Positions 34,501-40,500 of a DNA stretch of 43,429 nucleotides are shown one piece after another. Source of the DNA: a virus (Duplodnaviria > Heunggongvirae > Uroviricota > Caudoviricetes); IMG/VR virus record IMGVR_UViG_2522572023_000001; one strand, given 5' to 3'. The position numbers are program-made. Each line of letters opens with the position of its first letter. The first letter of the stretch is position 1.

Positions 34501-37500
34501 GCACTGACGCCCCTGATGCTGGATGAAGCTACCGGGAAACTGGTGGTCTGGGACGGACAGAAAGCCGGTAGTGCGGTTGGCATACTGGTACTGCCGCTTG
34601 AAGGCACAGAGACGGTACTGACGTATTACAAGTCGGGGACCTTTGCGACGGAGGCAATCCGCTGGCCTGACAGTGTGGATGAACACAAAAAGGCAAATGC
34701 CTTTGCCGGCAGTGCCCTGAGTCACGCGGCGCTGCCGTAACACGTTATCAGGCCACCGCGGTGGCCTGACTGATTTCTGAATGAAAGGAACTGATTTATG
34801 GGATTGTTTACGACCCGCCAGTTACTCGGTTATACCGAACAAAAAGTGAAATTTCGTGCGCTGTTTCTGGAGCTGTTTTTCCGCCGTACGGTGAATTTCC
34901 ATACCGAAGAGGTGATGCTGGACAAAATTACCGGAAAAACGCCGGTGGCGGCCTATGTCTCCCCGGTTGTTGAAGGAAAAGTGCTGCGTCATCGCGGTGG
35001 TGAAACCCGCGTGTTACGTCCGGGCTACGTCAAGCCGAAACACGAATTTAATTACCAGCAGGCGGTTGAGCGTCTTCCCGGTGAAGATCCGGCTCAACTG
35101 AACGACCCGGCCTACCGTCGTCTGCGTATCATCACCGATAACCTCAAACAGGAAGAGCATGCCATTGTCCAGGTGGAAGAAATGCAGGCGGTGAATGCCG
35201 TGCTGTATGGCAAATACACCATGGAAGGGGATCAGTTTGATACTGTCGAGGTGGATTTTGGACGCTCTGAAGGAAATAACATTGAGCAGGCCGACGGTAA
35301 AAAATGGTCTGAGCAGGACCGTGATACGTTTGATCCGACGCATGATATTGACCTCTACTGCGATCAGGCCAGCGGTCTTGTGAATATTGCCATTATGGAC
35401 GGTACTGTCTGGCGTCTGCTGAATGGTTTTAAGCTGTTCCGCGAAAAACTGGATACCCGTCGCGGCTCAAATTCACAACTCGAAACGGCAGTGAAAGACC
35501 TGGGGGCGGTGGTGTCTTTCAAAGGGTATTACGGCGATCTGGCCATTGTGGTGGCGAAAACGTCTTATGTGGCAGAGGACGGTACCGAAAAACGTTATCT
35601 GCCGGAGGGCACGCTGGTCCTGGGAAATACGGCTGCAGATGGGATCCGTTGTTACGGTGCCATTCAGGATGCGCAGGCGTTGTCCGAAGGTGTGGTGGCT
35701 TCTTCCCGTTACCCGAAACACTGGCTGACCGTGGGCGATCCGGCCCGTGAATTTACCATGACGCAGTCCGCACCGCTGATGGTGCTGCCGGACCCGGATG
35801 AGTTTGTGGTGGTGCAGGTGAAATAATCCGTGAGCGGGGGCGAAATGCCCCCGTGTCTTTTTTCACAGGGGGCTGATATGGCAACAAAAGAAGAAAATCA
35901 GAAACGTCTTCGTCAACTGGCTGGCCTGCTGGGGCGCGAGGCGGATATGTCGGGGAGTGCTGCGGATATTGCGCAACGTGTGTCTGAGTGGGAAGAGGAG
36001 CTTGCTGCTTCCCGGGAGGGCATTATGCCTGGTGATGAGAGCGGGCCTGAGCAAAATCACACAGACGATGGTGAGCAGTTGCACAACACTGATGCTACGG
36101 ATGATGTTAAAGCGGTCCGTGTGCGGAAATGCCTGCATGTGATGGGGTATTGCCCGGAGACAGGCCGTCCCGTTGAACTGACGTACCGGGGCATGCGTGT
36201 TCTGGTGCCATCACCACTGGCGACAGCCATGATACAGCACGGAACGGCTGAGCATGCGTGATTTTCAGAATGCCTTTGATGCTGCCCTTGCCGGGGTGGA
36301 CAGCACGATTGTTGAAGTGATGGGGCTCTGTGCGCAGTTCACCTCGGGGGCACAGTGTGGCAGCGAAGTTCAGGGGGTTTTTGACGATCAGCCGTTTGAC
36401 CGGCAGATTGTTATTCCGGCGGTGGCATTCAGTGGCGCTAAGCATGAGAGAGAGCATACTGATATTTACTCCTCATGCCGTCTGATAGTGCGGAAAAACG
36501 GTGCTGAAATTTATAACCGTACCGCGCTGGATAATACGCTGATTTACAGTGGCGTTATTGATATGCCTGCCGGTCACGGTCACATGACGCTGGAGTTTTC
36601 GGTATCAGCATGGCTGGTGAATAACTGGTATCCCACAGCAAGTATCAGCGATTTGCTGGTTGTGGTGATGAAGAAAGCCACCGCAGGCATCAGTATCAGC
36701 TGAATTTTATAACCCATATACGGGCGCCAGAAATGGCGCCTTTTTTATTGCAGAAAAGCGAGAGGTAATTATGCGTAAACTTTATGCCGCCATTTTGTCC
36801 GCAGCCATTTGTCTGGCCGTATCCGGTGCGCCTGCATGGGCGTCTGAACATCAGTCCACGCTGAGCGCGGGGTATCTTCATGTCTCGACGAACGTTCCTG
36901 GCAGCGATGAACTGAACGGGATTAACGTGAAATACCGTTATGAGTTTACGGACACTCTGGGAATGGTGACGTCATTCAGCTATGCAGGAGACAAGAATCG
37001 CCAGCTGACCCGTTACAGCGATACCCGCTGGTTCAGCGTGATGGCGGGGCCGTCTGTGCGCGTGAATGAATTGTTCAGCGCGTATGCGATGGCGGGTGTG
37101 TCTTACAGCCGTGTGTCGACTTTCTCCGGAGATTATCTGCAGGTGACCGACAACAAGGGGAAAACGCATGATGTGCTGACCGGAAGTGATGACGGTCGCC
37201 ACAGCAACACGTCTCTGGCGTGGAGAGCTGGCGTGCAGTTTAACCCGACCGAATCCGTGGCCATTGATATTGCTTATGAAGGCTCCGGCAGTGGCGACTG
37301 GCGCACTGACGGTTTCATCGTGGGTGTCGGTTATAAGTTCTGATTAGCCAGGTAACACAGTGTTATGACAGCCCGCCGGTTCAGGCGGGCTTTTTTGTGG
37401 GGTGAATATGGCAGTAAAGATTTCAGGTGTACTGAAAGACGGCACAGGAAAACCGGTAGAGAACTGCACCATTCAACTGAAAGCCAGACGGACCAGCAGC

Positions 37501-40500
37501 ACGGTGGTGGTGAACACGGTGGCCTCTGAAAATCCGGATGAAGCCGGTCGTTACAGCATGGACGTTGAGTACGGTCAGTACAGCGTCATTCTGTTGGTGG
37601 AGGGCTTCCCGCCGTCACATGCCGGGACCATCACCGTGTATGAAGATTCTCAACCGGGGACGCTGAATGATTTTCTCGGTGCCATGTCGGAGGATGACGT
37701 CCGGCCGGAGGCAATGCGTCGTTTTGAACTGATGGTGGAAGAAGCGGCGCGTCACGCAGAGGAGGCGAAGAAGAATGCCGGAGAGGCGGAGACATCAGCG
37801 AGGAATGCCGGCATATCAGCCAGTCAGGCAGAAGAGAGCGCTGCAAATGCTGACACTTCAGCAGGGGAGGCATCGGAGTCAGCCCGGCAGGCGGCAGAAA
37901 GTGCAGCCTCAGCAAAGCAGTCAGAGGAGGCGTCCTCGTCCTCGGCCTCTGCGGCCGCTCAAAAAGCCAGTGAGTCATCACAAAGTGCAGCAGATGCTGA
38001 ATTGTCAAGAAAGACGGCAGAAAGTGCAGCCGGTAATGCAGCCAGGGATGCAACGACCGCAACAGAAAAAGCCCGGGAGTCAGCAGAAAGCGCACAGTCA
38101 GCGGAACAAAGCAGGATAGCGGCGGAAGAGGCCGTAAACCGAATCCCCACCGTGGTGGGACCTCCCGGGCCAAAGGGGGAACAGGGGCCCGCGGGTCCTC
38201 AGGGGCCGAAGGGTGATAAGGGAGAGCGCGGTGACACCGGCCCTGTCGGGGCAACCGGCGAACGGGGACCGGCAGGTGATGCTGGTCCGGCAGGCCCGCA
38301 GGGGCCGAAAGGTGACAGGGGAGAGCGGGGAGAGACCGGTCTGACGGGAAATGCAGGTCCACAGGGTCCAAAGGGAGATACCGGTGCGGCAGGCCCGGCA
38401 GGCCCACAGGGACCGAAAGGAGAAACAGGTGCGGCTGGCCCGGTGGGGGCAACCGGACCTCAGGGACCGAAGGGCGACCCGGGGGAGACACAAATCCGTT
38501 TTCGTCTGGGGCCGGCGAGCATTATTGAGACAAACAGCAATGGCTGGTTCCCGGATACAGATGGCGCACTCATCACCGGACTGACCTTTCTTGACCCCAA
38601 AGATGCCACACGGGTTCAGGGTTTTTTTCAGCATTTGCAGGTCAGGTTTGGTGACGGGCCGTGGCAGGATGTCAAGGGGCTGGATGAAGTGGGCAGTGAT
38701 ACAGGCAGAACAGGAGAATGACATGAATATACTAAAAAAACTTATGCAGCGTCTGTGTGGTTGCGGAAAGCATGATGGCCGTGAACACGTGCAGTCGCTT
38801 ACAGCACAACTGCGACTGGGGCCGGCAGACATCCTGGAGTCAGATGAGAATGGCATTATTCCGGAGCAGGACAGGGTAATCACACAGGTGGTGATACTGG
38901 ATACAGATAAAAAGCTGATACAGTGTGTGGTAAGACCGCTGCAAATCCTGCGTGCTGACGGGACGTGGGAAAATATTGGCGGGATGAAGTAACCCGACAG
39001 CTTCACAAAACCGGAGTCCGGCTCCGGTTTTTGTTGTCATGTCATGGTGATGTTTGTTAAGAAAGTAAAGATTGATTCATTTTGAAGGTTGAAATGTATG
39101 CTATCACCATCTTCTGTAAATTTGGGGTGTTCATGGAATTCTTTAACCAGAAACCTGACTTCTCCTGACAGTCGTATTTTATCCTCTGTAAGGGATGCAG
39201 CTGCTAGCTCGGATAATGGGGCGCAAGTAAAGGTGGGCAACAGAACATATCGTGTTGTTGTCACTGATAATAAGTTTTGCGTTACAAGAGAAAGTCATAG
39301 TGGTTGCTTTACTAATCTGTTGCACAGGCTGGGATGGCCTAAGGGAGAGATTAGCAGGAAAATTGAGGTGATGCTGAATTCATCGCCAGTGAATAGGGCT
39401 ATGGAAAGAGGTGCTGTTCATTCGAATAGACCTGATTTACCTCCTGTTGATTATGCACCGCCAGAGTTACCGAGTGTGGACTATAACAGCTTGCCTGTGC
39501 CTGGTAATGTTATTGGCAAAGGGGGTAACGCTGTAGTATATGAAGATGCTGAGGATGCAACAAAAGTCCTGAAGATGTTTACTACATCTCAAAGCAATGA
39601 AGAGGTAACAAACGAAGTTCGTTGCTTCAACCAATATTATGGTGCCGGGAGTGCAGAAAAAATATATGGCGATAATGGCGATATTATTGGTATTAGAATG
39701 GATAAAATAAATGGAGAATCGCTTTTAAATATTTCGTCCTTGCCGGCACAGGCTGAGCATGCCATTTATGATATGTTTGACAGGCTTGAGCAAAAAGGAA
39801 TTCTTTTTATCGATACAACAGAGACAAATGTCTTATATGATCGCACGAGAAATGAATTTAATCCAATAGATATATCATCTTATAATATTTCTGAACGTTC
39901 ATGGAGTGAAAATCAAATAATGCAATCTTATCATGGAGGAAAGCAAGATCTTATTAGTGTGGTATTAAGTAAAATTTAGTAATTTTATCCAGTGTAGTGG
40001 ATTTGTTGCATGGATGGAGTTGGTAAAAAGTGGTGTGGCTGGCAATCCAGGCCGCGTCACAGAAATGGACAATGCCGCTGAGAGACTGGCGAATGGCATA
40101 CAGGCACCAGAAAAATTTCAGACATGACATAATGCCCATGCCAGAAGTTCTTTTTGCACCTCGCCTGTATTTATAGATAAACATAGAGTGAATGAATGAG
40201 ATATGAAAGACATTACCCTTCCCCCCCCGACGTCCGCGTCCTGTCTGACAGGGGCCATATCTGTAAATACTGAAGCTGTATTATCTCCCATGCAACACAC
40301 TTCAGCCTTACATGTAAGAGATTTTGCTTCCCTGTGCTCACAGAACCTCAAAGCTAATGTATTGCTAAATAGTGATGACCACGAAGTACCTATACATCAG
40401 AAAAATCCTGCTGCAATAATGCAAAATATCGACTCTAACATCAAACAGATGGCAACAGACTGGGGGATGTCGATTGAGGAGGTTGAGGTTATTATAGGGC

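Follow-up and report, generated by a model that had tools for sequence, protein, structure and literature searches.

A fusion of FII and J gene ends in place of the tail genes in a lambdoid prophage of Escherichia coli O145:H28

The window—the whole stretch of 43,429 nucleotides analyzed here—is 100% identical to Prophage 01 of both E. coli O145:H28 RM13516 and RM12761. Prophage 01 occupies the lambda att site, flanked by ybhC and ybhB, and carries the effectors nleH, cif, and espJ; it has been listed at ybhC–ybhB with a size of 43,164 bp and the cargo espJ/nleG/nleH/cif (Cooper 2014, Table S2). The lambda att core is found as an exact match both at attL and at attR, the latter approximately 1.07 kb past the end of the window, and the distance between the two agrees with the published size. 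Both int and xis are annotated as intact. The PGAP annotation of the identical record features a lambda-type order of modules: recombination, N, cI/cro/cII, O/P, nin, Q, lysis, cos, Nu1 to FI, lom, and stf. A 590-aa orphan ORF and two other ORFs gave no match in Pfam and/or PADLOC scans. The left attachment core and the packaging and head region occupy the following positions:

1331–1345, + strand: attL core, lying between ybhC and int and matching the lambda att core GCTTTTTTATACTAA exactly
27092–33086, + strand: tract of 5,995 bp shared at 100% identity with the serU prophage in the same chromosome, covering cos, Nu1, A, W, portal, and the start of C
28478–28489, + strand: cosN GGGCGGCGACCT, the one exact copy of the lambda cohesive-end sequence; Nu1 lies 184 bp downstream
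28673–36261, + strand: packaging and head module with Nu1, A, W, portal B, protease/scaffold C, D, E, and FI (PGAP)

The genes from Nu1 to FI are full length and free of internal stops, have the same lengths as in phage PhiR12_1, and encode proteins with 88–100% identity to those of this phage. In Pfam, W matches gpW and FI matches Packaging_FI. The listed host in the PhiR12_1 phage record is K-12 MG1655. The early region bears the damage that a preliminary description of this DNA had named: of O, only a 5′ stub of 231 bp and a 3′ stub of 69 bp are left around an IS3-family element, besides which no IS-family element is annotated in the early region, and gam is frameshifted (PGAP). The same description had recognized Q as a stub only; a full-length Q antiterminator is, however, annotated at 21078–21767, and any Q stub is therefore not the sole Q.

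The ORF that follows FI had been taken for FII. It is a chimera, composed of the first 45 codons of FII and approximately the last 104 codons of J:

36254–36703, + strand: chimeric in-frame ORF of 149 aa, the deletion scar
36254–36389, + strand: FII 5′ remnant, identical in 136 of 136 nt to FII of the OkiPb01680 prophage
36375–36389, + strand: junction microhomology GGGTTTTTGACGATC, 15 nt, imperfect; the head-side homology ends at 36389 and the J-side homology starts at 36375
36390–36703, + strand: J 3′ remnant with most of the C-terminal receptor-binding domain, identical in 314 of 314 nt to the J end of the E2855 ortholog

The FII remnant still begins with the start codon of FII, overlapping the stop codon of FI, and all of its 45 amino acids are identical to FII of PhiR12_1. 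In tblastn searches against the window, FII aligns with residues 1–45 and J with residues 1051–1158. Pfam finds in the 149-aa ORF only Ig_GpJ_C (residues 36–149, corresponding to profile positions 21–135 of 135), and PGAP labels the region 36377–36703 as a tail tip pseudogene without its N-terminus. The family profile of FII, PF05354 (Phage_attach, approximately 117 aa), scores 65 bits with an intact FII and has no match in the 149-aa ORF or in its 45-aa FII part. The ORF was thus rejected as a member of gpFII, for which a near full-length match to PF05354 is expected, as well as of gpJ, a protein of approximately 1,130–1,160 aa with tail-tip domains and a C-terminal receptor-binding domain, from which only residues 1051–1158 are left. 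Because the ORF is an FII′–′J fusion, the head-completion protein that docks the tail is lost along with the tail itself, and not all of the head module is intact—the earlier statement that cos, terminase, and head genes are intact holds for cosN and for Nu1 to FI but not for the truncated FII.

Downstream of the fusion, lom is the only gene in the 704 bp between the end of the ORF at 36703 and the start of the stf-like gene at 37408, in line with the approximately 700 bp and the single Lom/Ail gene described before:

36722–36749, + strand: terminator-like hairpin and T-run after J, conserved in intact relatives
36771–37343, + strand: lom, Ail/Lom outer-membrane beta-barrel of 190 aa (Pfam Ail_Lom, E = 1e-104)
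37370–37399, + strand: terminator-like hairpin and T-run after lom
37408–38721, + strand: stf-like side tail fibre gene, 437 aa, with phage_tail_N, collagen repeats, and Phage_fiber_C
38723–38992, + strand: Phage_fiber_C ORF of 89 aa, 100% identical to E2855

The product of lom is shorter by nine codons, in frame, than a 199-aa orthologue, and the stf-like protein shares 97.9% amino acid identity with its E2855 orthologue. Terminator-like hairpins, at 36722–36741 and 37370–37391, do bracket lom on both sides, each with a T-run. These terminators are native to the J–lom–stf region of intact relatives and are unrelated to the deletion.

In tblastn searches with proteins from intact relatives, Z, U, V, G, T, H, M, L, K, and I have no match anywhere in the window. 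The reported absence of the tail module is hence borne out for these genes but not for J, of which the end survives. The comparison with intact relatives identifies what is missing: the prophage of E2855 (bovine, NZ_AP018796.1) lies at the same ybhC–ybhB site, has nleH, cif, and espJ among its genes, and matches window positions 36375–43429 with 99.0% identity. Unlike Prophage 01, it keeps the 11,160 bp from FII through J with FII, Z, U, V, G, T, H, M, K, I, and J. Its own decay lies elsewhere, with a truncated portal, a frameshifted L, and a frameshifted cif. In the same chromosome as Prophage 01, the serU prophage is 98.7% identical to it across 12.8 kb, has Nu1, A, W, and portal proteins identical to those of Prophage 01, and possesses a complete FII and tail set; its FII matches, in 115 of 117 residues, the reference closest to the lost FII, and its own integrase is frameshifted. 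The ydfJ prophage of this chromosome is also complete. A third place matching the head module of Prophage 01 exists in the same genome. When all E. coli genomes were ranked by their copies of the lost FII–Z–U–V segment, no O145 genome was among the best 60.

The junction itself lies slightly upstream of the interval 36704–38721 to which the tail loss had been assigned. At this point, the FII sequence reads GGGTTTTTGACGATC and the J sequence reads GGGTTTATGACGATC, with 14 of 15 nt matching, and the crossover falls inside the exact 8-mer TGACGATC at 36382–36389. The microhomology codes for V-F/Y-D-D in FII and in J. Among simulated random junctions, the probability of at least 8 nt is 2.4e-4, and a 14/15 match occurred in 0 of 200,000; the joint is not a random breakpoint. 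The PGAP annotation contains no IS element or transposase at the joint, where the neighbors are FI, the tail tip pseudogene, and lom. The junction is present in 26 of 5,426 complete E. coli genomes at 99.4–100% identity. All carriers with a serotype label are O145 and belong to ST32 and ST6130—including RM13514, RM9872, and 95-3192 of ST32 and RM13516 of ST6130. Its occurrence in O145 genomes across both sequence types marks the junction as old and inherited. Of the O145:H28 genome papers, Nakamura 2020 states that ancestral prophages are conserved, with deletions; neither this paper nor Cooper 2014 describes the joint.

These features are very probably what one old deletion of approximately 11.2 kb has left behind in the lambdoid prophage at ybhC–ybhB of E. 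coli O145:H28. Illegitimate recombination would have joined FII codon 45/46 to a point in J approximately 104 codons before its end, probably as a microhomology-mediated deletion that used the 8-nt exact (14/15-nt) microhomology. The rest of FII, Z, U, V, G, T, H, M, L, K, I, and approximately 3.15 kb of J would have been lost in this step, leaving the 149-aa FII′–′J ORF in frame under the FII start codon.

That the tail genes merely moved to another part of the element has next to no probability: tblastn with 11 tail proteins over the whole window found none relocated, no such gene is annotated between int and attR, and the approximately 1.1 kb of prophage beyond the window, where displaced tail genes might have been sought, contains only espJ and attR; relocation is refuted by these searches. 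A collapse of prophage repeats during assembly could have dropped the tail genes from the record, in which near-identical lambdoid segments are numerous and a 6-kb query matches 12 places. Such an artefact is extremely improbable, however, given that 26 complete assemblies of numerous distinct strains contain the same joint, that the crossover lies in an 8-nt microhomology and not in a long repeat, and that the published 43,164 bp agree with the att-to-att distance. Instead of an intramolecular deletion, an illegitimate exchange could have produced the joint, with a resident prophage as one partner and an incoming phage or another prophage as the second, since the best relatives of the two flanks are different prophages: the left flank resembles late regions of OkiPb01680/serU type at 98.7–100% and E2855 at 91–96%, the right flank resembles E2855 at 99–100% and OkiPb01680 at 94%, within a comparison set that lacks the exact ancestor of Prophage 01. 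Lambdoid prophages are mosaic, however, and their flanks can be replaced later by homologous recombination, as the 5,995-bp identical tract shows; exchange between two elements is therefore rather unlikely, and it leads to the same outcome as a deletion within one element.

A different question is whether the tail-less prophage is more than a remnant, namely a capsid-forming satellite that excises, packages itself by means of its own cos, terminase, and heads, borrows FII and tails from lambdoid prophages in the same cell, and mobilizes nleH, cif, and espJ. Both att cores are intact, as are int and xis by annotation and cos and Nu1 through FI, and the serU prophage could supply FII and the full tail set, with the ydfJ prophage complete as well. 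Judged against the packaging limits of lambda, the size of 43.2 kb is near that of the lambda genome. Precedents exist for both parts of such a life cycle: defective Sakai prophages are packaged and transferred via complementation (PMC2669165), and tail-less capsids of cf-PICIs can acquire tails (He et al. 2025, bioRxiv 10.1101/2025.02.11.637232). Against this stand the joint, which is a deletion scar with a J remnant and not a designed module boundary, the truncated adaptor FII, the frameshifted integrase of the serU prophage, and the distribution of the junction, seen only within a single clonal lineage, as expected from vertical inheritance rather than from spread. In addition, ori is probably gone, as only 300 bp of O are left around the IS3-family element. 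Lambda-type packaging requires concatemers, which do not arise without replication. A satellite of this kind is thus highly improbable. There is likewise only a very slight chance that the prophage is not inert in the sense that induction of co-resident lambdoid prophages would lead to its excision, cutting at the serU-identical cos, filling of 21-type heads, provision of FII and tails in trans, and transfer of nleH, cif, and espJ at low frequency; if true, Prophage 01 would represent, at full size, the lambdoid equivalent of a capsid-forming satellite. As a weaker variant, the FII′–′J ORF may yield a free J receptor-binding domain with some activity.

With no tails, no FII adaptor, a broken O, and a frameshifted gam, the element is a defective prophage after a single deletion as preferred here: it has att repeats with int/xis, the lambda order of modules, and a loss of essential functions. 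Its gene content predicts that Prophage 01 is non-infectious, as the preliminary description had held. Its persistence probably owes more to vertical inheritance and to the cargo—lom, nleH, cif, and espJ—than to phage function. The one identical tract suggests that cos, terminase, and head genes may at least in part be kept uniform by recombination with the near-identical co-resident prophage. The analysis corrects a misreading, in that the ORF before lom is a fusion scar and the head-completion adaptor was lost along with the tail, and gives the exact breakpoint. It describes a prophage with nleH, cif, and espJ that became fixed in the O145:H28 lineage after the loss of its tail genes and whose remaining late genes are near-duplicates of those of a sibling in the same chromosome.

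Compared with gpFII (PF05354) and gpJ (Ig_GpJ_C) of lambda, the ORF starts with 45 residues of the former and ends with most of the receptor-binding domain of the latter, and it is a full member of neither, with no match to PF05354 and approximately 1,050 aa of J gone. The likeness to cf-PICIs—own capsid and packaging genes, no tail, and tails that could come from other phages—is superficial. Prophage 01 is not a compact island with regulation and replication of satellite type but has 43.2 kb with lambdoid N, cI-like, cro, cII, O/P, and nin; it is tail-less by a deletion scar and has a broken replication gene. Such a satellite would be expected to have working head-completion or adaptor proteins for docking foreign tails; in Prophage 01, W is intact but FII is cut to 45 aa. 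Another known counterpart is the Sp prophage pool of O157:H7 Sakai, which likewise features lambda-order prophages with T3SS effector morons, lost functions in replication, recombination, or morphogenesis, and many near-identical siblings able to recombine and complement (Asadulghani et al. 2009, PMC2669165). The ybhC–ybhB site is occupied in O157 and O145 alike. Prophage 01 differs from this pool by one clean 11.2-kb deletion from FII to J at a microhomology with Nu1 to FI intact. It is an ordinary, already known kind of prophage decay in a catalogued effector-carrying prophage, which fits the established picture of EHEC—prophage decay together with recombination between prophages—and raises no new question.

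The prophage at the ybhC–ybhB site of E. coli O145:H28 is Prophage 01 of strain RM13516. It is listed at 788,599–831,762 (43,164 bp, site ybhC–ybhB) with espJ, nleG, nleH, and cif as cargo (Cooper et al. 2014, PMC3893438, Table S2); the window matches NZ_CP007133.1 787268–830696, and the RM12761 and RM13516 chromosomes are 100% identical to window 34000–40000. The window runs from ybhC into the lambdoid prophage and ends approximately 1.1 kb before its right end, beside ybhB and bioA. The int and xis genes are intact in the PGAP annotation, and two att cores are present:

1331–1345, lambda att core GCTTTTTTATACTAA
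just beyond the window end, between espJ and ybhB, second att core GCTTTTTTATACTAA

The tail-shaft and tip module is missing from this element and has not moved elsewhere. The region following the last head-side ORF features only the following:

36722–36741, terminator-like hairpin with T-run
36771–37343, Ail/Lom gene (lom), alone in the 704 bp after the ORF ending at 36703
37370–37391, terminator-like hairpin with T-run
37408–38721, stf-like fiber gene (437 aa; phage_tail_N, collagen, and Phage_fiber_C domains)
next after the stf-like gene, 89-aa Phage_fiber_C ORF

The two hairpins bracket lom, as the preliminary description had it. The hairpin after J also occurs in an intact Stx2a phage and is thus native to the J–lom intergenic region rather than a product of deletion. 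Compared with the 199-aa E2855 orthologue, lom lacks nine codons in frame (RWHEDSVRN, bordered by an RW repeat), yet its match to Ail_Lom remains full-length. Tail-bearing relatives supplied the tblastn queries (FII, Z, U, V, G, T, H, M, L, K, I, J, lom, and stf proteins); these matched only FII aa 1–45, J aa 1051–1158, lom, stf, and the small fiber ORF, and Z through I found no match anywhere in the window. The rest of the prophage past the window end carries espJ only, so the claimed loss between head genes and lom/stf stands, and a rearranged set beyond the window, the alternative raised with that claim, does not exist.

Intact relatives retain FII through J. The prophage of strain E2855 occupies the same ybhC–ybhB site, carries nleH, cif, and espJ, and is 99.0% identical to window 36375–43429; its FI-to-lom interval contains FII, Z, U, V, G, T, H, M, L (frameshifted), K, I, and J, and the missing interval measured on it is 11,160 bp. 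The head module of the OkiPb01680 prophage is 98.7% identical to window 26758–36389 and continues into a full FII-to-J set. Among complete E. coli genomes, 1,697 carry the FII–Z–U–V module at a coverage of at least 80% and 1,852 the head module. The cif gene is intact here (40203–41030), whereas its orthologue in tail-bearing E2855 (L005 23849–24687) is frameshifted, so decay has struck a different module in each lineage. The lpxR-containing segment (19417–21066) is inverted relative to E2855.

The ORF at 36254–36703, previously read as FII, is a chimera of the FII 5' end and the J 3' end. Phage matches to the E–FI–FII arm stop at 36389, and those to the J–lom–stf arm start at 36375; in pairwise alignments, FII homology breaks after ...GGGTTTTTGACGATC and J homology starts at GGGTTTaTGACGATC.... 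The 5' 136 nt of OkiPb01680 FII recur unchanged at 36254–36389 (136/136), and the 3' 314 nt of E2855 J at 36390–36703 (314/314)—J is hence not wholly missing, as had been stated. Joined in frame, the parts encode a 149-aa product that begins at the start codon of FII itself, which overlaps the stop of FI. Pfam recognizes only Ig_GpJ_C, the C-terminal receptor-binding domain of J (residues 36–149, profile positions 21–135 of 135); intact FII scores 65 bits against PF05354, and the 45-aa stub gives no score. PGAP had already flagged 36377–36703 as a tail tip pseudogene lacking its N terminus. The original observation is real in substance, though partly misdescribed, and its interpretation is broadly right.

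The crossover lies inside an exact 8-mer, TGACGATC (36382–36389), within a 14/15-nt match where both FII and J encode V-F/Y-D-D. When 200,000 random deletion junctions were simulated in the late region of E2855, 8 nt or more of exact microhomology arose with P = 2.4e-4, and a 14/15 match never occurred. The PGAP annotation shows neither an IS nor a transposase at the joint, where the neighbors are FI, the tail tip pseudogene, and lom. This sequence signature suggests illegitimate, microhomology-mediated recombination, most likely a single event that cut out 11.2 kb from FII to J. As a less likely variant, the joint may have formed between two different elements: the closest relative of its left flank is not the prophage closest to its right flank, but later homologous exchange could just as well have replaced either flank. 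Of 5,426 complete E. coli genomes, 26 carry the joint, at 99.4–100% identity over 501 bp; all serotype-labeled carriers are O145 or O145:H28, and in the phage collection no record reaches 80% coverage of a 6-kb query spanning it. Carriers include RM13514, RM9872, and 95-3192 (ST32) and RM13516 (ST6130) (assignments from Nakamura et al. 2020, PMC7067040). Being common to both sequence types, the deletion is older than their split and vertically inherited.

The packaging and early regions feature the following:

28478–28489, cosN GGGCGGCGACCT
approximately 10999–12594, IS3-family element with a remnant of O on each side (5' stub, 231 bp; 3' stub, 69 bp)
21078–21767, full-length Q antiterminator, annotated just downstream of the lpxR-containing segment

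Nu1, A, W, B, C, D, E, and FI contain zero internal stops and match those of phage PhiR12_1 (listed host K-12 MG1655) in length, with 88–100% protein identity. Intactness of cos, terminase, and head genes thus holds for cosN and Nu1–FI and fails for FII, cut to 45 codons. Frameshifted gam and disrupted O are as reported; P and ren are intact. Since a full-length Q is annotated, any Q stub is not the only Q, and the late operon does not obviously lack one. The loss of the tail genes and FII, added to the lesions in O and gam, leaves a prophage unable to build or dock tails and probably non-infectious. It persists in the O145:H28 lineage, as do its lom and stf genes and the effectors nleH, cif, and espJ. 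A 590-aa hypothetical ORF in the nin region (15301–17073, minus strand, between ninE and an HNH endonuclease gene) has neither a Pfam nor a PADLOC match and may be an uncharacterized moron. A further late region has left traces downstream of cif (41161–42544), where PGAP annotates a frameshifted hypothetical gene, an 81-bp tail fiber assembly stub, and a frameshifted DUF1076 gene; nleG in the Prophage 01 cargo list (Cooper et al. 2014, PMC3893438) is noted beside them.

At least two further lambdoid prophages reside in the same chromosome. The serU prophage (within NZ_CP007133.1 2417500–2466500) is 98.7% identical to window 23245–35999 over 12.8 kb. This includes a tract of 5,995 bp with zero differences (27092–33086; cos, Nu1, A, W, portal, and start of C), and PGAP assigns the same protein accessions in the two prophages. 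Such identity suggests that the prophages recombined, or underwent gene conversion, recently; gene conversion, rather than selection on the element, may account for the intact packaging genes. The serU prophage has a complete FII (115/117 aa identical to OkiPb01680), an unflagged Z-to-J tail set, and a frameshifted integrase. In the ydfJ–rspB prophage, the lambda-type set of head, FII, and tail genes is complete and int is intact; its FII is 68% identical to that of PhiR12_1, which serves as the close reference for the gene lost here. All the functions missing from the element are therefore present in trans.

The feature is an ordinary defective prophage, already catalogued. O157 Sakai offers well-documented cases of defective effector-carrying lambdoid prophages with morphogenesis defects, and of siblings that complement and recombine with one another (PMC2669165), and ancestral O145:H28 prophages are conserved, with deletions and replacements (Nakamura 2020, PMC7067040). 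That the element acts like a satellite, borrowing tails from its co-resident prophages, is very improbable. The model for such behavior is cf-PICIs, whose tail-less capsids can acquire foreign tails (10.1101/2025.02.11.637232); the present element departs from them on three counts—it differs in size and regulation, its adaptor FII is broken, and its tail-less state originates as a deletion scar.
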